Positions 1-9,142 of a stretch of DNA of 9,142 nt are shown here, piece by piece. A model generated the notes under the pieces. It was not told the DNA's origin. It searched no databases and saw nothing but the letters and a program-made list of their open reading frames with translations. The first letter of the stretch is position 1. Each line of letters begins with the position of its first letter. The DNA is from a virus. Lineage: Duplodnaviria; Heunggongvirae; Uroviricota; Caudoviricetes. The stretch spans positions 1 through 9,142 of IMG/VR virus record IMGVR_UViG_3300039382_000253. One strand, written 5' to 3'. The translations under genes were made by a program, and so were the position numbers.

Positions 1-886
<886 letters not shown>

Positions 887-915
<29 letters not shown>

Positions 916-1165
916 GGTTACCTCTGCTTTTTGAACGCATGTCACGTAACTTCTTAATGTGTTCTGCCGTTTCGATCTCTTCTGCTATCCGATCTGCATC
1001 AGCTTTATTCACAGGTTCAAAGTCATGATTAAAGCGGAACATGCTGGCGATACATGTTCTGCCTTTTCGGATGTAGTGAACTTTGTTGTGGGTAGAACGC
1101 AGGATTTTGCAGGGAGTGCCGTGGTGGTCGACGTACCAGGTGTTAGGAAAAATGATTCTGAACAT
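887..1165 (-). CDS. Hypothetical 92-aa protein in the exo-xis region (Ea8.5 position), possible Cys/His metal-binding motif
   Basis: ATG at 1165..1163 preceded by GAGGTG about 6 nt upstream. Contains C19, H26, H30, C38 (TPCKILRSTHNKVHYIRKGRTC). Size and position next to xis resemble lambda Ea8.5 (93 aa), but I cannot confirm homology from memory. Confidence 0.5.
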
Positions 1166-1212
1166 TTTTACACCTCAGTTGGACGATGTTGAAATTTGCT
1201 GCTTTGAGGCCA

Positions 1213-1431
1213 TCACAGTCCCCATTGTTTGTTCTTAAGTTCGATCTCCTCCTGGCAACTTGCACAAGTCCGACAACCCTGAACAGCCAGGCGTCTTCGC
1301 TCATCTATCGGATCGCCACACTCACAACAATGAGTTGCGGATACAGTCTGGTAGTTCTGACGACGCATTTTTATTGCTGTATTGCGCTGTAATTCTTCGA
1401 TTTCTGATGCTGAATCAATGATGTCTGCCAT
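1213..1431 (-). CDS. TraR/DksA-family C4 zinc-finger protein (lambda Orf73-like)
   Basis: 72 aa with CCECGDPIDERRRLAVQGCRTCASC, a CxxC-(17)-CxxC zinc finger typical of TraR/DksA C4-type proteins. ATG at 1431..1429 with a GGAAG-like SD. Confidence 0.7.
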   Translation of the reverse strand: MADIIDSASEIEELQRNTAIKMRRQNYQTVSATHCCECGDPIDERRRLAVQGCRTCASCQEEIELKNKQWGL

Positions 1432-1484
1432 CTTCCATTAATCCCTGAATTGTTGGTTAATACGCTTGAGGATGAATGCGAACA

Positions 1485-1507
1485 ATAAAAAAGGAGCCTG
1501 TAGCTCC
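1485..1507 (-). terminator. Weak candidate intrinsic terminator for leftward transcription
   Basis: On the minus strand, GGAGC-TACAG-GCTCC (plus 1493-1507) is followed by TTTTTTATTG. The stem is only 5 bp, so this is weak. It overlaps a possible 29-aa ORF (see findings). Confidence 0.3.
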
Positions 1508-1529
1508 CTGATGATTTTGCTTTTCATGT

Positions 1530-1811
1530 TCACCGTTCCTTAAAGACGCCGTTTAACATGCCGATCGCCAGGCTTAAATGAGTCGGTGTGAATCCCATCA
1601 GCGTTACCGTTTCGCGGTGCTTCTTAAGTACGCTACGGCAAATGTCATCGACGTTTTTATCCGGAAACTGCTGTCTGGCTTTTTTGATTTCAGAATTAGC
1701 CTGACGGGCAATGCTGCGAAGGGCGTTTTCCTGCTGAGGTGTCATTGAACAAGTCCCATATCGGCAAGCATAAGCACACAGAATATGAAGCCCGCTGCCA
1801 GAAAAATGCAT
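1530..1811 (-). CDS. Hypothetical small protein of the exo-xis region; start uncertain
   Basis: Open frame 1530..1844 on the minus strand, but the codon at 1844 is TTG. In-frame ATGs are at 1811..1809 (93 aa) and 1745..1743 (71 aa); neither has a strong SD. No recognisable motif. Confidence 0.4.
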   Translation of the reverse strand: MHFSGSGLHILCAYACRYGTCSMTPQQENALRSIARQANSEIKKARQQFPDKNVDDICRSVLKKHRETVTLMGFTPTHLSLAIGMLNGVFKER

Positions 1812-1821
1812 TCCGTGGTTG

Positions 1822-2379
1822 TCATGCAGCCTCCCGACGGGCAAGAATCCTTGAGCCGAACGCCATCAACTCTCCACGATCAACGGTCGTAAAGTGGCAG
1901 TGTGTACGGGGGTATGGGTGCCAGATAATGAGCATCGAGCCTTTATTATTTCCACTGACGGGTTTCTCAGTGAGTGGGTTAATAAATGCCAGTCGTCCTG
2001 CCGTGATGAATCTGACCTCACTGGCGGTTTGTATCGCTTCATGAAACCATCCGACAGATGTGTCAGCAGGCAATAACATTACACATCCCACACTACTGAA
2101 TTTGTTTTCAGTGGCTGCCTTTTTCACAAAAGGGGAAATATTGCTGTATGGTGGATTCAACCAGACATAACCAGAGGCATATCCCATTGCTTCAGGCCAT
2201 GAAGTGGTTAATGTGTTCTGCTCCTGTGAGATAAAAAGCCGACATAGTCGGTTTTTTTCGCTGGCGGCAGCATCAAGTTGAAAAACGAACTCTGCATTAA
2301 GCGCAGCAAAAATCTCTGGTGGTGTGCGCCAGCTGTCGCGATGTTCGGCAGGAGTATTGCTTCCGGTGAAATCAGTCAT
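1822..2379 (-). CDS. Phage Dam-family DNA N6-adenine methyltransferase (orphan)
   Basis: 185 aa containing WLNPPYSN, the (D/N)PPY catalytic motif IV of N6-adenine methyltransferases. ATG at 2379..2377 with a GGGGG SD about 5 nt upstream. No adjacent restriction endonuclease ORF. Confidence 0.75.
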   Translation of the reverse strand: MTDFTGSNTPAEHRDSWRTPPEIFAALNAEFVFQLDAAASEKNRLCRLFISQEQNTLTTSWPEAMGYASGYVWLNPPYSNISPFVKKAATENKFSSVGCVMLLPADTSVGWFHEAIQTASEVRFITAGRLAFINPLTEKPVSGNNKGSMLIIWHPYPRTHCHFTTVDRGELMAFGSRILARREAA

Positions 2380-2533
2380 ACAGCCCCCGTTTATTATTTA
2401 TCGCCTCAGCCAGCCGCTGTGCTTTCAGTGGATTTCTGATAACAGAAAGGCCGGGAAATACCCAGCCTCGCTTTGTAACGGAGTAGATGAAAGTGATCGC
2501 GCCTACCCGGATATTATCGTGAGGATGCTTCAT
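2372..2533 (-). CDS. Small 53-aa ORF immediately downstream of exo (lambda orf60a position)
   Basis: Hand-translated as [53 protein letters not shown]. Its ATG (2533..2531) overlaps the exo stop as ATGA, and its stop overlaps the Dam start (TATGACTGA). Not in the supplied ORF track, presumably because it is below the length cut-off. Confidence 0.45.
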
Positions 2534-3210
2534 CGCCATTGCTCCCCAAATACAAAACCAATTTCAGCCAGTGCCACGTCCATTTTTTCGATGAACTCCG
2601 GCACCATCTCGTCAAAATTCGCCATGTACTTTTCATTCCGCTCAATCACGACATAATGCAGGCCTTCACGCTTCATACGCGGGTCATAGTTGGCAAAGTA
2701 CCAGGCATCTTTTCGCGTCACCCACATGCTGTACTGCACCTGGGCCATGTAAGCCGATTTTATGGCCTCGAAACCACCGAGCCGGAACTTCATGAAATCC
2801 CGGGAGGTAAACGGGCATTTCAGTTCAAGGCCGTTGCCGTCACTGCATAAACCATCGGGAGAGCAGGCGGTGCGCATACTTTCGTCGCGATAGATGATCG
2901 GGGATTCAGTAACATTCACGCCGGAAGTGAATTCAAACAGGGTTCTGGCGTCGTTCTCGTACTGTTTTCCCCAGGCCAGCGCCTTAGCATTAACTTCCGG
3001 AGCCACACCGGTGCAAACCTCAGCCAGCAGGGTGTGGAAGTAGGACATTTTCATGTCAGGCCACTTCTTTCCTGAGCGGGGCTTTGCTATCACGTTGTGA
3101 ACTTCTGAAGCGGTGATGACGCCGAGCCGTAATTTGTGCCATGCATCATCCCCCTGTTCGACAGCTCTCACGTCGATCCCGGTACGCTGCAGGATAATGT
3201 CCGGTGTCAT
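2530..3210 (-). CDS. exo: Lambda-type 5'-3' exonuclease (Red alpha)
   Basis: 226 aa, [50 protein letters not shown]..., matches lambda Exo as recalled over essentially the full length. Start overlaps the bet stop (ATGA). Confidence 0.95.
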
Positions 3211-3992
3211 GCTGCCACCTTCTGCTCAGTGGCTTTCTGTTTCAGGAATCCAAGAGCTTTCACTGCTTCGGCCTGTGTCAGTTCTGACGATGCGCGAATG
3301 TCGCGGCGAAATATCTGGGAACAGAGCGGCAATAAGTCGTCATCCCATGTTTTATCCAGGGCGATCAGCAGAGTGTTAATCTCCTGCATGGTTTCATCGT
3401 TAACCGGAGTGATGTCGCGTTCTGGCTGACGTTCTGCAGTGTATGCAGTATTTTCGACAATGCGCTCGGCTTCATCCTTGTCATAGATACCAGCAAATCC
3501 GAAGGCCAGACGGGCACACTGAATCATGGCTTTATGCCGTAACATCCGTTTGGGATGCGACTGCCACGGCCCCGTGATTTCTCTGCCTTCGCGAGTTTTG
3601 AATGGTTCGCGGCGGCATTCATCCATCCATTCGGTAACGCAGATCGGATGATTACGGTCCTTGCGGTAAATCCGGCATGTACAGGATTCATTGTCCTGCT
3701 CAAAGTCCATGCCATCAAACTGCTGGTTTTCATTGATGATGCGGGACCAGCCATCAACGCCCACCACCGGAACGATGCCGTTCTGCTTATCAGGGAAGGC
3801 GTAAATTTCTTTCGTCCACGGATTAAGGCCGTACTGGTTGGCGACGATCAACAATGCGATGAACTGCGCATCGCTGGCATCACCTTTAAATGCCGTCTGG
3901 CGAAGAGTGGTGATCAGTTCCTGTGGGTCGACAGAATCCATGCCGACACGTTCAGCCAGCTTCCCTGCCAGCGTTGCGAGTGCTGTACTCAT
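3207..3992 (-). CDS. bet: Lambda Bet single-strand annealing protein (Red beta)
   Basis: 261 aa, [66 protein letters not shown]..., matches lambda Bet as recalled. Confidence 0.95.
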
Positions 3993-3997
3993 CCGTT

Positions 3998-4294
3998 TTA
4001 TACCTCTGAATCAATATCAACCTGGTGGTGAGCAATGGTTTCAACCATGTACTGGATGTGTTCTGCCATGCGCTCCTGAAACTCAACATCGTCATCAAAC
4101 GCACGGGTAATGGCTTTTTTGCTGGCCCCGTGGCGTTGCAAATGATCGATGCATAGCGATTCAAACAGGTGCTGGGGCAGGCCTTTTTCCATGTCGTCTG
4201 CCAGTTCTGCCTCTTTCTCTTCACGGGCGATCTGCTGGTAGTGACGCGCCCAGCTCTGAGCCTCAAGACGATCCTGAATGTAATAAGCGTTCAT
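3998..4294 (-). CDS. gam: Gam (GamS form), RecBCD inhibitor
   Basis: 98 aa, [60 protein letters not shown]..., matches lambda GamS. Upstream DNA is lambda-like but has a stop in the GamL frame and no in-frame ATG, so only the short form is encoded. Confidence 0.9.
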
Positions 4295-4369
4295 GGCTGA
4301 CCTCCTGAAAATGGCTGTGAAAATATCGCCCGCGAAATGCCAGGCTGATTAGGAAAACAGGAAAGGGGA

Positions 4370-4660
4370 TTAGTGATTCAGGCCGTTACCGCGTCCGTCG
4401 AGAAAAACTTCCACGAGCAAATCACGGGTATAAGTGCGCTCGATGCCGCGATGCAGATAAAGCCGTCCGCGTAAATTAGCTGATGCAGTCCAGGTACCAT
4501 CTTTGTGTTTGACCAGCATTCCTGGCATGACCGCACCTCGATTAACGGTCTGCGTTCCATAATGTTGATGAACCATAAAAACTCCTGCCCGTAAGCTGGG
4601 CTGCTGAACATATAGAGACTTCTGCGCGTATTCAGGCGGTGGATGGCCGCCGGTTGTCAT
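4370..4660 (-). CDS. Hypothetical protein in the kil position, not homologous to lambda Kil; start uncertain (4660 gives 96 aa, 4576 gives 68 aa)
   Basis: Shares lambda kil's frame and stop codon (TAA inside TCACTAA) but its C-terminus (...[14 protein letters not shown]) is unlike lambda's (...WILILKLRSSKSIH, back-translated from recalled lambda DNA). The ATG at 4576..4574 has AGGAG 5 nt upstream; the ATG at 4660 has GAGG about 10 nt upstream. A second long frame overlaps it, so coding status is not certain. Confidence 0.4.
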
Positions 4661-4825
4661 AACTAAGCCGCCTCGTTGAAGCGACTAAGGTATGAAATGT
4701 TGAGTTAATTTCAGCTGGTCACACCGACGTTCACGCGTCCGTTTCACCCCTCGCACTCCCCGAAGCCTGCTGAAATTCAAACTGCGGATCTAAGCGGTCA
4801 TCGCAACGGTGAATCAGGTAGTTGC

Positions 4826-4900
4826 CGTATCGTTGTGTTGTTGCGATGAACTTATTTAAAACTATAGTTGTTTTATCGTCAACAACAAAAGTTGTTTTAT
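4826..4900 (-). promoter_or_regulatory. Putative oL/pL: operator-like repeats with a leftward promoter
   Basis: Palindrome AACAACAAAAGTTGTT at 4881-4896; 10-mer GTTGTTTTAT repeated at 4867-4876 and 4891-4900; GTTGTGTTGTTG at 4832-4843. Minus-strand -35 TTGACG (plus 4877-4882) with TTTAAA/TTAAAT 16-17 bp downstream. Half-sites resemble the oR sites. Confidence 0.4.
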
Positions 4901-5023
4901 TGGTTGCTTTAGATATAACTGGTTGTATTTAGGATGGATTTATTTTGTGACTTGAATCGCATAGCGATAACTGAAGCGAGGTTATGGTGGTTTTTTTAAC
5001 GGTGTGTGTGATGAGGGGAGGGC

Positions 5024-5050
5024 AAAAGAAAACCCGGCACGGTGACCGGG
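5024..5050 (-). terminator. Candidate rho-independent terminator downstream of the repressor gene
   Basis: On the minus strand, CCCGG-tcaccgtg-CCGGG followed by TTTTCTTTT, about 120 bp past the repressor stop. The stem is only 5 bp but all G/C. Confidence 0.4.
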
Positions 5051-5171
5051 ATTCTTACGCCGTTAGGTAAAGATATTATTGCGGTGGCTTAATATTACTA
5101 CCTAGAGCAAAGATAGGAATTAGTTCTTTACTGAATGAGCACAATGCCCAGTTGATAATTTTTAATTGGTA

Positions 5172-5861
5172 CTACCCATGCTTCCTATATGTCTGCGGCA
5201 TGCTCCCAATAACCTTACCGAAGATGAACACCCGGTTCATCTCGTCTTTCTCGATCGGGTCCCACGGTGAGTAGCTTTTGTTATCAGAGATGACCAGCAG
5301 CTTATCCTTCATCATTTGCAGGCGCTTTACATGGGCTGTGTCGTCGTACAGAAACGCATAGATACCATCACCGTCGAAAGATTTAACTGTGATATCAACG
5401 AACAGCAGATCACCTGGTTCGATCGTTCCTGACATGCTGTCACCACGCACGTTAATGATGCGGATATTTTCCGCCTTCCTACCATCGAACATGTGACGAG
5501 CATCGTCAAACGAGTACTCAACCGAGCGTAGAACTTCTACAAACTCACGGTTGATGACTCCCGGCCCAGCACTGACTTCTATATCAAGAACGTCAATCTT
5601 GAAGTATTTGGAATGGCTGACAGTTGATTGTATTGGTTGCACTGTACTGTCTGACATATTTCCAACGCCAGAAGATAACCATTCTGCGCGCACACCCAAA
5701 GCGTTCGCGATCTCCACGATTTTAGTTGTTTGATTAGCTTTCCCTGTTTCGATTTTCTGAATAGCAGCCTGGCTAACCCCGACCAAATCCCCAAGCGCCT
5801 TTTGTGTAAGGCCTCGCGCTAATCTGGCTTCTTTAAGTCTTTCTGAGAGTGTTGTTTTCAT
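5172..5861 (-). CDS. cI: CI-like prophage repressor (N-terminal HTH, C-terminal S24/LexA-like autopeptidase domain)
   Basis: HTH in LTQKALGDLVGVSQAAIQKIETG; Ala-Gly in the linker (VSAGPG); Ser in VRGDSMSG and Lys in HVKRL as the S24 catalytic dyad. Preferred start is the ATG at 5861..5859 (229 aa) with no SD, consistent with a leaderless pRM transcript. The open frame extends to 5927 but would run through the operators. Confidence 0.85.
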   Translation of the reverse strand: MKTTLSERLKEARLARGLTQKALGDLVGVSQAAIQKIETGKANQTTKIVEIANALGVRAEWLSSGVGNMSDSTVQPIQSTVSHSKYFKIDVLDIEVSAGPGVINREFVEVLRSVEYSFDDARHMFDGRKAENIRIINVRGDSMSGTIEPGDLLFVDITVKSFDGDGIYAFLYDDTAHVKRLQMMKDKLLVISDNKSYSPWDPIEKDEMNRVFIFGKVIGSMPQTYRKHG

Positions 5862-5965
5862 AGTCCAAATGTACAACCAAGGTTTTATTCCATCAAACGA
5901 AAATGGTTGTTGACTAAAAACAACCATGGTTTTAATCTTGATTCAAATTAACCACGGAGGTTGTT
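5862..5965. promoter_or_regulatory. oR-like switch region: three operator-like sites with divergent pR (rightward) and pRM (leftward)
   Basis: Sites ACAACCAAGGTTTT (5873-5886), AAAATGGTTGTT (5900-5911, reverse orientation AACAACCATTTT) and AACAACCATGGTTTT (5919-5933). pR: -35 TTGACT 5910-5915, 17-bp spacer, -10 TAATCT 5933-5938. pRM on the minus strand: -35 TTGATG (plus 5891-5896), 17-bp spacer, -10 TACATT (plus 5868-5873), 6 nt before the repressor ATG. Confidence 0.55.
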
Positions 5966-6196
5966 ATGAACCCAGCTATCAAAACAGCGATCAATATCGT
6001 TGGTTCACAAAAGAAACTGGGCGCTGCTTGCGAAGTTTCACAGCAGGCCGTCTATAAGTGGCTTCACAACAAAGCAAAGGTATCCCCTGAACATGTCGGC
6101 AGCATTGTTACGGCTACTGGTGGAGTAGTGAAGGCATACCAGATTCGCCCGGATCTTCCGAAGTTGTTTCCACACACCGAAAAGAACGCAGCTTAA
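5966..6196 (+). CDS. Cro-like small HTH regulator (YdaS-like family)
   Basis: 76 aa; GGAGG SD at 5956-5960; HTH in GSQKKLGAACEVSQQAVYKWLHN; first gene downstream of pR. The ATGG-V motif and overall pattern resemble Rac YdaS as I recall it. Confidence 0.75.
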   Translation: MNPAIKTAINIVGSQKKLGAACEVSQQAVYKWLHNKAKVSPEHVGSIVTATGGVVKAYQIRPDLPKLFPHTEKNAA

Positions 6197-6208
6197 ATTT
6201 CCATTTCA

Positions 6209-6221
6209 CGCTCTTTAACAA
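6209..6221 (+). promoter_or_regulatory. boxA-like element (CGCTCTTTAACAA) in the cro-cII intergenic region
   Basis: 12 of 13 positions match the rrn boxA consensus TGCTCTTTAACAA and it resembles lambda nut boxA (CGCTCTTA). It sits where nutR lies in lambda. No convincing boxB hairpin follows. Confidence 0.4.
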
Positions 6222-6264
6222 TAAGCAATCAACTTAACAGTCAATTCAAACTAAAGGAGCAATT

Positions 6265-6804
6265 ATGCAACCACTTACATACCAACAGACTAGCGGATTT
6301 AGCCCGACTGCGGTGATAAATCGTTCTCAAACAAAACAGGTGCCAGGCCACGAAAAAATCCGTGATGCCGTCCGCGCCTGGTCGGCTGTAGATAATCAGG
6401 ATGTCGTTGCCACACTCATTGTGAATGAGTATCGGGAGCAGGGCGGCGGCACCATCGATTTCCCTGATGATGTCAGCCGTGCACGCCAGAAGCTGTTCCG
6501 CTTCCTCGATAACAAATTCGATTCTGAAAAATACCGAAATAACGTGCGTGAACTGACCCCGGCAATTCTGGCGGTACTACCGCTGGAATATCGCGGTTAC
6601 CTGGTTGAGCAGGATAGCTTCATGGCTAGGTTGGCTGAAATGGAAAAGGAACTCAGTGAGGCAAAACAGGCTGTCATTCTCAACGCACCACGCCACCAGA
6701 AACTGAAGGAAATTAGTGAAGGTATTGTGTCGATGTTTCGTGTGGACCCAGATCTGGCTGGTCCATTGATGGCGATGGTTACTACCATGCTGGGGGCGAT
6801 ATGA
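6265..6804 (+). CDS. 179-aa protein in the cII position, possibly a YdaT-like regulator
   Basis: AAGGAG SD at 6254-6259, 5 nt before the ATG. No similarity to lambda CII. C-terminal region (LAEMEKELSEAKQAVILNAP...) looks like an amphipathic helix or coiled coil. Family assignment is tentative and from memory only. Confidence 0.55.
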   Translation: MQPLTYQQTSGFSPTAVINRSQTKQVPGHEKIRDAVRAWSAVDNQDVVATLIVNEYREQGGGTIDFPDDVSRARQKLFRFLDNKFDSEKYRNNVRELTPAILAVLPLEYRGYLVEQDSFMARLAEMEKELSEAKQAVILNAPRHQKLKEISEGIVSMFRVDPDLAGPLMAMVTTMLGAI

Positions 6805-6890
6805 CAGGTTCAGAAATGGCGAAAGCCGGTCTGCTGGAACAGAACCGACTTTCAGGTGCAAATCGTAACACACTCATTGCGGGAGGAATT

Positions 6891-7820
6891 ATGGCAAACA
6901 CTGCTGAGATATTCAATTTTCCAGTGCCGGATGCGGCACAAAAGGAGCCGCGCGTGGCAGATCTCGATGATGGTTATACGCGCATTGCAAATGAGTTGCT
7001 GGAAGCTGTGATGCTGGCCGGATTAACACAGCACCAGCTTCTGGTCTTTCTGGCTGTCATGCGCAAAACATATGGCTTTAATAAAAAACTGGATTGGGTT
7101 AGCAACGAGCAACTTTCCGAATTAACCGGGATATTGCCGCACAAGTGTTCTGCTGCAAAAAGTGTTCTGGTAAAGCGTGGGATTTTTATTCAGAGCGGGC
7201 GGAATACCGGCATTAATAATGTGGTCAGTGAATGGTCAACATTACCCGAATCAGGTAAGAAAAATAAAGTTTACCTGAAAGAGGTAAATTTACCTGAATC
7301 AGGTAAAAAAAGTTTACCCAAATCAGGTAAAGGCGTTTACCCGAATCAGGTAAACACAAAAGACAAACTAACAAAAGACAATATAAAACCTTTTTCGTCC
7401 GAGAATTCTGGCGAATCCTCTGACCAACCAGAAAACGATCTTCCTGTGGTGAAACCGGATGCTGCAATTCAGAGCGGCAGCAAGTGGGGGACAGCAGAAG
7501 ACCTGACCGCCGCAGAGTGGATGTTTGACATGGTGAAGACCATCGCGCCATCAGCCAGAAAACCGAATTTTGCAGGGTGGGCTAACGATATCCGCCTGAT
7601 GCGTGAACGTGACGGACGTAACCACCGCGACATGTGCGTGCTGTTCCGCTGGGCATGCCAGGACAACTTCTGGTCCGGTAACGTGCTAAGTCCGGCCAAA
7701 CTCCGCGACAAGTGGACCCAGCTCGAAATCAACCGAAACAAGCAACAGGCTGGCGTGACAGCCGGCAAACCAAAACTCGACCTGACGAACACTGACTGGA
7801 TTTACGGGGTGGAGCTATGA
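6891..7820 (+). CDS. O: Replication initiator O (lambda O-like), containing the origin iterons
   Basis: Preferred start ATG 6891 with GGGAGGAA SD, giving MANTAEIFNF (lambda O begins MTNTAKILNF). VADLDDGYTRIANELLEA and LTQHQLLVFLAVMRKTYGFNKK match the lambda O N-terminal domain. The open frame extends upstream to 6801. Stop overlaps the P start (ATGA). Confidence 0.85.
   Translation: MANTAEIFNFPVPDAAQKEPRVADLDDGYTRIANELLEAVMLAGLTQHQLLVFLAVMRKTYGFNKKLDWVSNEQLSELTGILPHKCSAAKSVLVKRGIFIQSGRNTGINNVVSEWSTLPESGKKNKVYLKEVNLPESGKKSLPKSGKGVYPNQVNTKDKLTKDNIKPFSSENSGESSDQPENDLPVVKPDAAIQSGSKWGTAEDLTAAEWMFDMVKTIAPSARKPNFAGWANDIRLMRERDGRNHRDMCVLFRWACQDNFWSGNVLSPAKLRDKWTQLEINRNKQQAGVTAGKPKLDLTNTDWIYGVEL
7241..7395. 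repeat. Origin of replication: five 17-bp palindromic iterons followed by an A/T-rich stretch, inside O
   Basis: TTACC(C/T)(G/A)AA(T/G)(C/A)AGGTAA-type iterons at 7241-7257, 7270-7286 (variant TTACCTGAAAGAGGTAA), 7289-7305, 7313-7329 and 7336-7352, then A/T-rich 7353-7395. Same architecture as ori-lambda. Confidence 0.75.
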
Positions 7821-8518
7821 AAAACATCGCCGCACAGATGGTTAACTTTGACTGTGAGCAGATGCGCCGGATCGCCAACAACATGCCGGAACAGTACGAC
7901 GAAAAGCCACAGGTACAGCAGGTAGCGCAGATCATCAACGGTGTGTTAAGCCAGTTACTGGCAACTTTCCCGGCGAGCCTGGCTAACCGTGACCAGAATG
8001 AACTGAACGAAATCCGCCGCCAGTGGGTTCTGGCTTTCCGGGAAAACGGGATCACCACAATGGAACAGGTTAACGCTGGAATGCGCGTAGCCCGTCGGCA
8101 GAATCGACCATTCCTGCCATCACCCGGGCAGTTTGTCGCCTGGTGCCGGGAAGAAGCATCTGTTAACGCCGGGCTGCCAAACGTCAGCGAGCTGGTTGAT
8201 ATGGTTTACGAGTATTGCCGGAAGCGTGGCCTGTATCCGGATGCAGAGTCTTATCCGTGGAAATCGAACGCGCATTACTGGTTGGTTACCAACTTGTACC
8301 AGAACATGCGGGCCAATGCGCTGACTGACGCGGAATTACGGCGCAAGGCTGCCGATGAACTGACCTGTATGACAGCGCGAATTAACCGTGGTGAGACGAT
8401 ACCTGAACCAGTAAAACAACTTCCTGTTATGGGCGGTAGACCTCTAAATCGTGCACAGGCTCTGGCGAAGATCGCAGAAATTAAAGCTAAATTCGGACTG
8501 AAAGGAGCAAGTGTATGA
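7817..8518 (+). CDS. P: Replication protein P (DnaB helicase loader)
   Basis: 233 aa, MKNIAAQMVNFDCEQMRRIANNMPEQYDEKPQVQQVAQIINGV..., near-identical to lambda P as recalled. Confidence 0.95.
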   Translation: MKNIAAQMVNFDCEQMRRIANNMPEQYDEKPQVQQVAQIINGVLSQLLATFPASLANRDQNELNEIRRQWVLAFRENGITTMEQVNAGMRVARRQNRPFLPSPGQFVAWCREEASVNAGLPNVSELVDMVYEYCRKRGLYPDAESYPWKSNAHYWLVTNLYQNMRANALTDAELRRKAADELTCMTARINRGETIPEPVKQLPVMGGRPLNRAQALAKIAEIKAKFGLKGASV

Positions 8519-8817
8519 CGGGCAAAGAGGCAATTATTCATTACCTGGGGACGCATAAGAGCTTCTGTGCACAGGACGTTGCCGCGGTAACAGGCGCAAC
8601 CGTAACCAGCATAAATCAGGCTGCGGCTAAAATGGCGCGGGCAGGAATCCTGGTCGTTGATGGTAAGGTCTGGCGAACGGTGTATTACCGGTTCGCTACC
8701 AGAGAAGAACGGGAAGGAAAGGTGAGCACGAATCTGATTTTTAAGGAGTGTCGCCAGAGTGTCGCGATGAAACGGGTATTGAGGGTATATAAAAGAACAT
8801 CAATGGGAACACAATGA
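8515..8817 (+). CDS. ren: Ren protein
   Basis: 100 aa, MTGKEAIIHYLGTHKSFCAQDVAAVTGATVTSINQAAAKMARAGILVVDGKVWRTVYYRFATREEREGK..., matches lambda Ren as recalled. ATGA overlap with the P stop. Confidence 0.9.
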   Translation: MTGKEAIIHYLGTHKSFCAQDVAAVTGATVTSINQAAAKMARAGILVVDGKVWRTVYYRFATREEREGKVSTNLIFKECRQSVAMKRVLRVYKRTSMGTQ

Positions 8818-8834
8818 TGAAACAGGTGAGTTGA

Positions 8835-8869
8835 GTTCAAACTGTAGTACAATTCTCTCCAGTTTGAAC
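8835..8869 (+). promoter_or_regulatory. Perfect 10-bp inverted repeat between ren and emrE
   Basis: GTTCAAACTG (8835-8844), 15-nt loop, CAGTTTGAAC (8860-8869), ending 15 nt before the emrE ATG. No T-tract follows, so it is not a canonical terminator. Confidence 0.4.
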
Positions 8870-8884
8870 AGGAAAGAATATGCT

Positions 8885-9142
8885 ATGAACCCTTATATTT
8901 ATCTTGGTGGTGCAATACTTGCAGAGGTCATTGGTACAACCTTAATGAAGTTTTCAGAAGGTTTTACACGGTTATGGCCATCTGTTGGTACAATTATTTG
9001 TTATTGTGCATCATTCTGGTTATTAGCTCAGACGCTGGCTTATATTCCTACAGGGATTGCTTATGCTATCTGGTCAGGAGTCGGTATTGTCCTGATTAGT
9101 TTACTGTCATGGGGATTTTTCGGCCAACGGCTGGACCTGCCA
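8885..9142 (+). CDS. emrE: Small multidrug resistance efflux protein EmrE (SMR family), 3'-truncated by the window edge
   Basis: Hand translation from ATG 8885 gives MNPYIYLGGAILAEVIGTTLMKFSEGFTRLWPSVGTIICYCASFWLLAQTLAYIPTGIAYAIWSGVGIVLISLLSWGFFGQRLDLP, matching E. coli EmrE as recalled. AGGAAAG SD upstream. Same ren-emrE adjacency as in the K-12 DLP12 prophage. Confidence 0.9.
   Translation, partial: MNPYIYLGGAILAEVIGTTLMKFSEGFTRLWPSVGTIICYCASFWLLAQTLAYIPTGIAYAIWSGVGIVLISLLSWGFFGQRLDLP

Follow-up and report, generated by a model that had tools for sequence, protein, structure and literature searches.

A conserved structured RNA in the pL leader of an N-less lambdoid prophage: a candidate antitermination element in the slot of put and nutL-N

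The 9,142-nt stretch of viral DNA analysed here (IMG/VR record IMGVR_UViG_3300039382_000253, positions 1–9,142; hereafter the window) covers the early region of a DLP12/PhiR34_1-type lambdoid prophage. A preliminary description, made from the letters alone, had pointed to about 510 bp (4661–5171) without a convincing open reading frame (ORF) where N, rexAB, cIII and ral would sit, and had proposed that antitermination is N-independent and possibly RNA-based, or that the leader encodes a small RNA or a micro-protein. According to our analysis, this stretch bounds the immunity region of an N-less prophage on its left side. Within it, the leader of the pL transcript carries a conserved, structured RNA element of 100 nt that stands where related phages have either put RNA or nutL-N. 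We infer from sequence comparisons that the element may be an N-independent, cis-acting antitermination determinant conferring terminator read-through, a proposition that we regard as evenly balanced. More tentatively, and with somewhat less confidence, we suggest that it might act as a self-sufficient, put-like antiterminator RNA of a new class that is unrelated to put in sequence and fold.

The pL leader is 271 nt long (4847–4577) and leads into kil. Its 5' part, with the element, is composed as follows:

4799–4848, minus strand: 5'-terminal hairpin of the pL transcript, 9 bp, in which 4848–4840 pairs with 4807–4799.
4703–4802, minus strand: conserved leader element, 100 nt, about 45–145 nt after the pL start, scoring 129 bits with covariance model R2.
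4787–4778 with 4769–4760, minus strand: helix H2, with loop 4777–4770.
4759–4742, minus strand: G-rich linker between H2 and H3.
4741–4736 with 4729–4724, minus strand: helix H3.
4714–4707, minus strand: segment complementary to the H2 loop.

Of 5426 complete E. coli genomes, 2198 contain the element, and no RefSeq annotation lies under it there. Searches of the whole window and of 4560–5180 against Rfam 15 remained below threshold (best match 17.8 bits, threshold 53.5 bits, E ≥0.7), and a literature search by sequence and by topic retrieved no description of the element or of the structured module downstream of it. Two subtypes were recognized. The leader of the window type (W) was recovered from the phage collection by tblastn and blastn in a close group of 16 phages only, and the diverged L subtype in 15 viral contigs, one by profile search of the loci in hand and 14 by pattern scan. 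Subtype L is about 20% diverged, is linked to at least eight different immunity cassettes and to varied downstream genes, and aligns with W without gaps over 100 nt. The pL transcripts of L type begin with the same ~50 nt as those of phi80 and HK639, and the element comes next. Diversity of the element was 0.029 (78 variants) compared to 0.072 at third codon positions of kil and 0.065 in the kil–gam spacer, and was close to that of the first and second codon positions of kil (0.017–0.020).

Comparison of the two subtypes gave a structured element with three base pairs showing double compensatory changes. In H2, nine of ten pairs are kept in both W and L despite three adjacent substitutions per arm (A-U to C-G, G-C to A-U, and U-G to C-G). 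The base of H3 is kept too, and an A-U pair is changed to G-C between the subtypes. Paired cells amounted to 95.5%, versus at most 44% in controls with slid partners, and the observed covariation score was reached by no shuffle. An apparent U/C-A/G covariation within the W subtype (4763-4742 and 4742-4697) was discarded, as it reflects two linked haplotypes and not pairing. The inverted repeat TCGCAAC...GTTGCGA (4801–4846), reported before as 7 bp, is real and longer; it comprises 9 bp and lies at the very 5' end of the transcript. RNAalifold on 38 variants returned all nine pairs, with changes solely to G-U wobbles, and the 5' sequence of the leader (CAUCGCAACAAC) resembles the leader start of phi80 and HK639. 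The UUCG-containing segment mentioned earlier is present but forms no tetraloop; it makes up the 3' arm of a hairpin with covariation support.

The position of the element was compared among loci that have the first ~50 nt of the phi80/HK639 pL transcript. This leader start is followed by boxA/nut in 57 loci, by put in 41 and by the element in 13; a further 23 loci were classed as "other", most of them with a variant boxA-like motif. Put and the element have a common upstream junction (CGAAGTGGAG) and a common 3' flank (ACGATTTACCAGCAGCTCTTTGCGAGGGGCTGACGG). Two loci, L338 and L339, have the promoter and operators of phi80 and the element where phi80 has nutL-N. A second context points the same way: five loci have put 114 nt ahead of the ATG of the downstream module, which is where the window has the element. 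Judged from these alignments, the lambdoid mosaic uses put, nutL-N and the element interchangeably.

Two further viral contigs (L269 and L286) carry the 5' half of put RNA directly joined to a boxA consensus (..CATGCGTCGGAACCGCTCTTTAACAATC..); from its sequence, this leader looks like a put/nut hybrid.

The put RNAs of HK022 and HK639 are cis-acting polymerase-utilisation antiterminator RNAs (PMC9378689). The likeness to the element is one of arrangement. Both lie just downstream of pL in a lambdoid phage without an N gene, both occupy ~70–100 nt with two stem-loops in the same slot between identical flanks, and in both cases the intrinsic terminators to be read through lie downstream. The location expected of a put-type RNA, the pL leader of a lambdoid phage without annotated N, is therefore that of the element. 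The sequence is a different matter. A put covariance model (R1), derived from 30 sequences with the put consensus GUCGAACGGCGCGAC..CAUGCGUCGG..GGCGGG..CGGCAAU, recovered its positive controls with 91 bits (HK639 putL), 89 bits (HK022 putL) and 43 bits (HK022 putR). The best matches in the window did not exceed 5.2 bits (E >1), and none lay in the leader; neither the whole PhiR34_1 genome nor the L-type loci gave a put match with R1. The element was thus rejected as a put RNA. With ~5 bits at best against 43–91 for true put, there is no sequence or covariance similarity, and the stems, the loops and the conserved G-rich linker all differ. Put acts in cis through the β' zinc-binding domain of RNA polymerase and suppresses pausing and termination without protein factors; the element might do the same.

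The N/nut system was searched for in the same way. The preliminary description had stated that no N-sized gene fits behind pL, and this agrees with our data: there is just a 20-codon, arginine-rich ORF, without Pfam or PHROG match. An N protein would have about 100 aa, an N-terminal arginine-rich motif and regions that bind NusA and RNA polymerase. The preliminary description had also named an N homologue elsewhere in the prophage, with matching nut sites, as evidence that would count against its proposal. No such homologue was found among the proteins of the window's pL operon with Pfam and PHROGs, all of which fall into Xis, DUF4222, TraR/DksA, Dam, DUF1317, Exo, Bet, Gam and Kil, and none is annotated in the complete PhiR34_1 genome. 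A boxA was absent from the pL leader (4577–4850) with up to three mismatches allowed, and hence there is no nut site there. In lambda and phi80, nutL-N takes the same slot as the element, behind the shared 5' leader of the pL transcript; here N, boxA and boxB are all missing from the pL leader. The arginine-rich motif that happens to be encoded in the W subtype recalls N, but its ORF has merely 20 codons and is not conserved. In phi80, gene N is followed by the terminator tL1A, which is also missing in the window.

The strong boxA reported on the pR side does exist:

6209–6221, plus strand: boxA CGCTCTTTAACAA on the pR transcript, in the interval separating cro from the cII-like gene, an exact 13/13 match to the consensus, without a boxB hairpin.

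It is the only match with fewer than three mismatches in the window. The rrn-type boxA consensus (YGCUCUUUAACAA) of the rrn boxA/Nus system is present on the pR transcript and absent from the pL leader. A consensus boxA on the pR transcript is also a point of likeness to the N/nut systems of lambda and phi80. The site is specific to one immunity cassette and absent from sister phages with the same pL leader element. At the position of this boxA, the 4A7-type cassette (L003/L017-type loci) has UUGUUUAAC and then a hairpin, GCCGCCUAAACUGCGGC, which is similar to the stem of phi80 tL1A, though without a U tract. The right operon of HK639 has an annotated "M3-like RNA" behind the cII-like gene (record L398, 3911–3970), to which nothing in the window corresponds.

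A further structured RNA embedded in a leader, the EAR element of the Bacillus eps operon, is proposed to make polymerase terminator-resistant over long distances. It belongs to another phylum and differs in sequence from our element. No Rfam 15 family, which takes in EAR and similar processive antiterminator RNAs if the database has them, matches the window.

Whether the element has terminators to overcome was explored by a terminator scan. One strong intrinsic terminator lies inside the pL operon:

1491–1509, minus strand: intrinsic terminator, 8-bp stem AGGGAGCTACAGGCTCCTT then TTTTATTGTT.

It stands upstream of the TraR-like, DUF4222 and xis genes and is the first clear barrier to pL transcripts in the window. 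The relatives L195 and L334 are more informative. In L195, the repressor-operon terminator and pL are followed by the element, an HNH endonuclease gene, a 91-aa ORF and a strong intrinsic terminator at 7627–7611; beyond it lie two small ORFs, a second strong intrinsic terminator (6734–6717), the downstream module, two further small ORFs, kil, gam and recT. Within the limits of its locus, L334 is organized likewise and has a single terminator before the place of the module. The intervening ORFs of both loci gave no match to the PHROG family of phi80 N, and R1 found no put. As terminators stand between pL and the delayed-early genes, L195 and L334 must read through them. On sequence grounds the element, in the put slot, appears to be the sole conserved candidate for this read-through.

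Several observations weigh against antitermination by the element. In a mosaic genome, a common position counts as circumstantial evidence. No strong intrinsic terminator was found by the scan between pL and kil–exo in the window, so that this phage may not need antitermination for these genes. Related N-less prophages of Silvania, Enterobacter and Kluyvera (L010, L011 and L013) reach kil through a leader of ~77 nt without the element. The leader contains C-rich, G-poor tracts (C/G 2.6 at 4850–4811 and 2.0–2.2 at 4720–4671), compatible with Rho loading. The element is single-copy per phage and absent from the pR operon; searches of the complete PhiR34_1 genome and of the other loci gave no second, putR-like copy, whereas HK022 has putR on the pR side, although the HK639 record likewise annotates only a single copy, putL, on the pL side. 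As just two diverged subtypes exist, each helix contributes about one evolutionary event to the compensatory changes. The folding energy of the RNA was no better than that of shuffled sequence (z −0.4 to −1.3), and thermodynamic stability was therefore left out of the evidence. Finally, two mutually exclusive folds compete: a long-range helix between the H2 loop and 4714–4707 is in competition with H2, which could mean a switch, a pseudoknot or nothing.

The ~77-nt leader of L010, L011 and L013 keeps the 5' start CAUCGACAAC, a 5' hairpin, and the part of the downstream module with P3 and the Shine-Dalgarno sequence.

These data bear on a rival explanation, a plain N-less leader without antitermination, in which pL transcription would run straight into kil-gam-bet-exo and the element and the module would serve mRNA stability, translational control of the toxic kil, or Rho-dependent attenuation that silences kil in lysogens. 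We consider it rather unlikely, and it is a serious rival because of the single pL-side copy, the 77-nt N-less leaders and the C-rich tracts. The window offers no strong intrinsic terminator from pL to exo and lacks the N-tL1A cassette, the leader is long, largely untranslated and has the C-rich/G-poor tracts typical of Rho loading sites, and the Silvania, Enterobacter and Kluyvera prophages drive kil without the element. The kil gene of the rac prophage is said, in work by Cardinale et al. from 2008, to be silenced by Rho. What a plain leader leaves unexplained is the precise swap of the element with put and nutL-N between identical flanks, and the expression of kil, gam and recT behind two strong terminators in L195 without N or put.

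If the element is an antitermination determinant, RNA polymerase starting from pL would transcribe the leader, and the emerging element would act in cis to confer terminator resistance, either alone, as HK022 put does, or as a loading site for a factor. It would thereby replace the nutL-N system, and polymerase would then pass barriers downstream such as the terminator at 1509–1491 or, in sister phages, those of tL1 type. Put-like action might possibly proceed through a switch or pseudoknot of the H2 loop with 4714–4707. The lineage would have lost, or never had, gene N and tL1A, and the element would therefore be joined directly to the structured module that precedes kil. Taken together, the earlier proposal of N-independent, RNA-based antitermination is partly supported, by the missing N, boxA and put in the pL leader, the swaps with put or nutL-N and the compensatory pairs; the activity itself is a deduction from these patterns.

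The module between the element and kil, which we refer to as the "post-tL1" module, is conserved and structured as well:

4577–4694, minus strand: "post-tL1" module, consisting of CAUACC, P1, a mini-ORF with AUG at 4660, P2, P3 and the Shine-Dalgarno sequence (SD).
4689–4663, minus strand: hairpin P1, with basal CAUA/UAUG pairing.
4651–4635, minus strand: P2.
4601–4587, minus strand: P3.
4586–4582, minus strand: SD.

Its order is CAUACC, P1, a near-invariant UUAUGACAACCGGCGGCCAUCCACCGCC containing P2, a variable linker with GCGCAGAAGUC, P3, SD and the next gene. P1 has seven pairs with compensatory changes in 32 variants, and its stem occurs in at least seven different sequences, all of which pair. 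The homologue of window positions 4697–4635 in phi80 comes right behind gene N and tL1A, and that in HK639 lies between annotated terminators. The module was found in more than 200 viral contigs and also in HK225 and KO-TP1, and matched nothing in Rfam. In most phages an intrinsic terminator lies immediately upstream of it; this is not the case in the window. The mini-ORF starts with MTTGGHPPP and a polyproline run; of 203 copies, 196 agree in its first 23 nt. It is of variable length, most often 16 or 21 aa, and at times it is fused to the next gene.

In most L-type phages the element is followed by ~500 nt without a convincing ORF (L334 10358–10866 and sister loci), beginning with AAUUUGAAUAAAAAAAUUAGAGGAGAAACUCAAAUGAAGCACUAA.

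The leader was also searched for coding sequences that could account for its conservation. One candidate overlaps H3:

4685–4747, minus strand: possible 20-codon, arginine-rich micro-ORF with GUG start, VKRTRERRCDQLKLTQHFIP.

In the W subtype this ORF starts VKRTRERRCDQLK..., which recalls the arginine-rich motif of N. A functional micro-protein, either this 20-aa peptide or the product of the mini-ORF from AUG 4660, might serve as a mini-N or as a leader peptide controlling downstream expression; we consider this very improbable. For the arginine-rich peptide, an SD (GGAG) lies 8 nt upstream of GUG 4747, the start is AUG in six variants, and the two commonest polymorphisms of the element are synonymous in its frame (diversity by codon position 0.015, 0.021 and 0.057). 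This codon-position signal comes from five common sites only and is not significant. The start of the mini-ORF does not vary in those 196 copies, the few variants seen (ACC to ACT, GGC to GGT) leave the amino acids unchanged, and a frame ending in EVLY is kept in several linker variants. Against this, the mini-ORF is heterogeneous in length and C-terminus, and three different frames read through the conserved motif GCGCAGAAGUC. The arginine-rich ORF is destroyed in the L subtype (GUG UAA), where the arginine codons are replaced by a different hairpin and the H3 structure is kept, and for this reason it was dropped as a mini-N. Functional phages also differ at its stop codon, with TAG in 28 variants and CAG in 50. 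It has no match to a Pfam or PHROG family, and tblastn matches were confined to the close group. A 20-aa arginine-rich motif also comes without the NusA- and RNA polymerase-binding parts of lambda N. On account of the GUG UAA in L, the polymorphic stop and the lack of homologues beyond the close group, the RNA and not the peptide was taken as the conserved entity; the micro-ORF is probably not the functional one, and the micro-protein considered in the preliminary description is disfavored.

The same ORF can be read as a trace of a lost gene. The element could be an inert relic of a deletion that took most of gene N together with tL1A, retained because the block is young and a frequently recombining mosaic. 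The first ORF after pL is arginine-rich and contains KRTRERR, a motif like that of lambda N; ACCAGCUGAAAUU is similar to the 3' half of the tL1A stem of phi80 (ACCAGCGGCUUUUU), and within-group diversity is low throughout the block. A relic is improbable in our view, since the element persists in the ~20% diverged subtype with its many immunity cassettes and different downstream genes, the substitutions in the helices are compensatory, diversity is 2.5-fold below that of neutral-like sites of the same block, and the arginine-rich ORF matches no N family.

A separate, stable small RNA acting in trans would agree with a conserved, structured and unannotated element in a prophage. We give this option very little credence: behind the element there is neither a terminator nor another 3'-end signal, the hairpins that come next are without U tracts, no promoter of its own besides pL was found, the element is always sense-oriented in the pL leader slot, and Rfam gave no match.

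With regard to coding content, no ORF of at least 60 aa was found in 4661–5171, in agreement with the preliminary description. The only ORFs of at least 30 aa in this stretch are a 31-aa TTG ORF (4685–4780, minus strand) and a 36-aa TTG ORF (4822–4932, plus strand), neither of which matched Pfam or PHROGs. A 28-codon plus-strand ORF (4985–5071) was rejected due to indels of 1–2 nt within the ORF in relatives, and a promoter-like site on the plus strand (4841–4868) because the promoter count was below the shuffle expectation. The first real gene of the pL operon is kil:

4370–4576, minus strand: kil, 68 aa (PHROG 294, 1.2e-38).

It starts at ATG 4576 behind AGGAG and not at ATG 4660, and the gene-free span therefore extends over 4577–5171. 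Kil has 68 aa in HK225, mEp237, KO-TP1, 4A7 and HK639, and 69 aa in phi80. The 96-aa "kil-position ORF" from ATG 4660 is a misleading in-frame fusion of the conserved mini-ORF with kil, and this fusion occurs in this lineage only. The ~200 nt given earlier as the distance from pL to ATG 4660 are correct, but the ATG is that of the mini-ORF, and the leader extends over ~271 nt.

About half of the flagged 510 bp is ordinary, consisting of a cargo-deletion scar, the repressor-operon terminator, operators and promoter:

4854–4882, minus strand: pL promoter with −35 TTGACG (4882–4877), a 17-nt spacer, −10 TTAAAT (4859–4854) and start at about A4847.
4857–4896: left operators (OL), AACAACAAAAGTTGTT at 4881–4896 (a perfect palindrome) and TAAAACTATAGTTGTT at 4857–4872, by pattern search.
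5023–5050, minus strand: intrinsic terminator of the cI/pRM transcript (t_imm analogue), CCCGGTCACCGTGCCGGG then TTTTCTTTTG, by terminator scan.
5051–5171, minus strand: scar of a deleted gevT/gevA cargo cassette, 120 bp, in a variable slot downstream of cI.
5172–5864, minus strand: gene of the cI-type repressor (Pfam Peptidase_S24 1.2e-18, HTH_3 5.4e-13; annotated cI in PhiR34_1), the right boundary of the region.

In three unrelated promoter-operator cassettes of relatives, the −10 hexamer falls into identical alignment columns, at the same distance to the conserved leader, which places the pL start near A4847. The operator-like repeats noted earlier were borne out, as AACAAC-N4-GTTGTT has 11 matches versus 5.05 expected, a number reached by 3 of 200 shuffles; the matches cluster at 4857–4899 (OL) and at 5872–5965 (the right operators, OR). 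The operator stretch is the most variable part among relatives (diversity 0.30–0.37), as expected for immunity specificity, and the variation ends abruptly at ~4845. The arrangement is that of an OL/pL control region: palindromic operators overlap a sigma-70 promoter facing away from cI and recur at OR, and a terminator follows the repressor operon. The latter, previously described as a terminator-like hairpin at 5024–5050, is a good terminator on the minus strand (stem 5050–5033, then TTTTCTTTTG) and forms the edge of the conserved block in 80 related loci.

The slot between the cI stop and this terminator holds cargo of at least eight sizes across the 80 loci. Window 5021–5130 corresponds to 3722–3831 of L002 (94%) and window 5127–5200 to its 5208–5281 (96%). 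As the two matches lie 1376 bp apart in PhiR47_2, 1376 bp were deleted. Between the matching places PhiR47_2 has gevT and gevA, an annotated toxin-antitoxin pair. The deletion junction is a 4-bp TTTA (5127–5130), and a decayed 3' remnant of gevA with an internal stop persists at 5055–5130. The "rexAB slot" is thus empty in the window.

The remaining genes of the early region are:

2530–3210, minus strand: exo.
3207–3992, minus strand: bet.
3998–4294, minus strand: gam.
5966–6196, plus strand: cro (YdaS family).
6265–6804, plus strand: cII-like YdaT gene; O, P, ren and emrE also lie on the plus strand.

The region studied is 99–100% identical to PhiR34_1, a phage that forms plaques on MG1655 and in whose complete record (44.6 kb) a Q gene is annotated. 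The window differs from this phage in two places. In positions 1–755, the 3' part of an IS3-family transposase gene adjoins the xis end of the prophage and stands where PhiR34_1 has 1248 bp with int; excision of this prophage copy may have been lost. A Dam-type DNA adenine methyltransferase gene (1822–2379, minus strand) stands where the otherwise near-identical PhiR34_1 has 185 bp, a mosaic difference inside the pL operon.

To our knowledge, processive antitermination by RNA alone is known from very few systems, with put as the paradigm. Authors who meet lambdoid phages without N guess that these "may use put" (PMC12315714). The element described here is a concrete, very common, unannotated and previously undescribed structured RNA in the put/nutL-N slot, and yet it is not put. 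The question of delayed-early gene expression in N-less lambdoid phages thereby becomes directly testable with reporter constructs. If the element proves inactive, the local annotation is still corrected with respect to the kil start at ATG 4576, the scar at 5051–5171, the repressor-operon terminator and a second conserved leader module. If it is a put-like antiterminator RNA of a new class, early antitermination in lambdoid phages would draw on three or more cassettes that can replace one another (N/nut, put and the element), the third carried by prophages in ~40% of sequenced E. coli genomes. An active element would also change prophage annotation in thousands of these genomes. It would represent a second, independent way for a nascent RNA to reprogram RNA polymerase, useful for structural work and as a compact part for synthetic biology.

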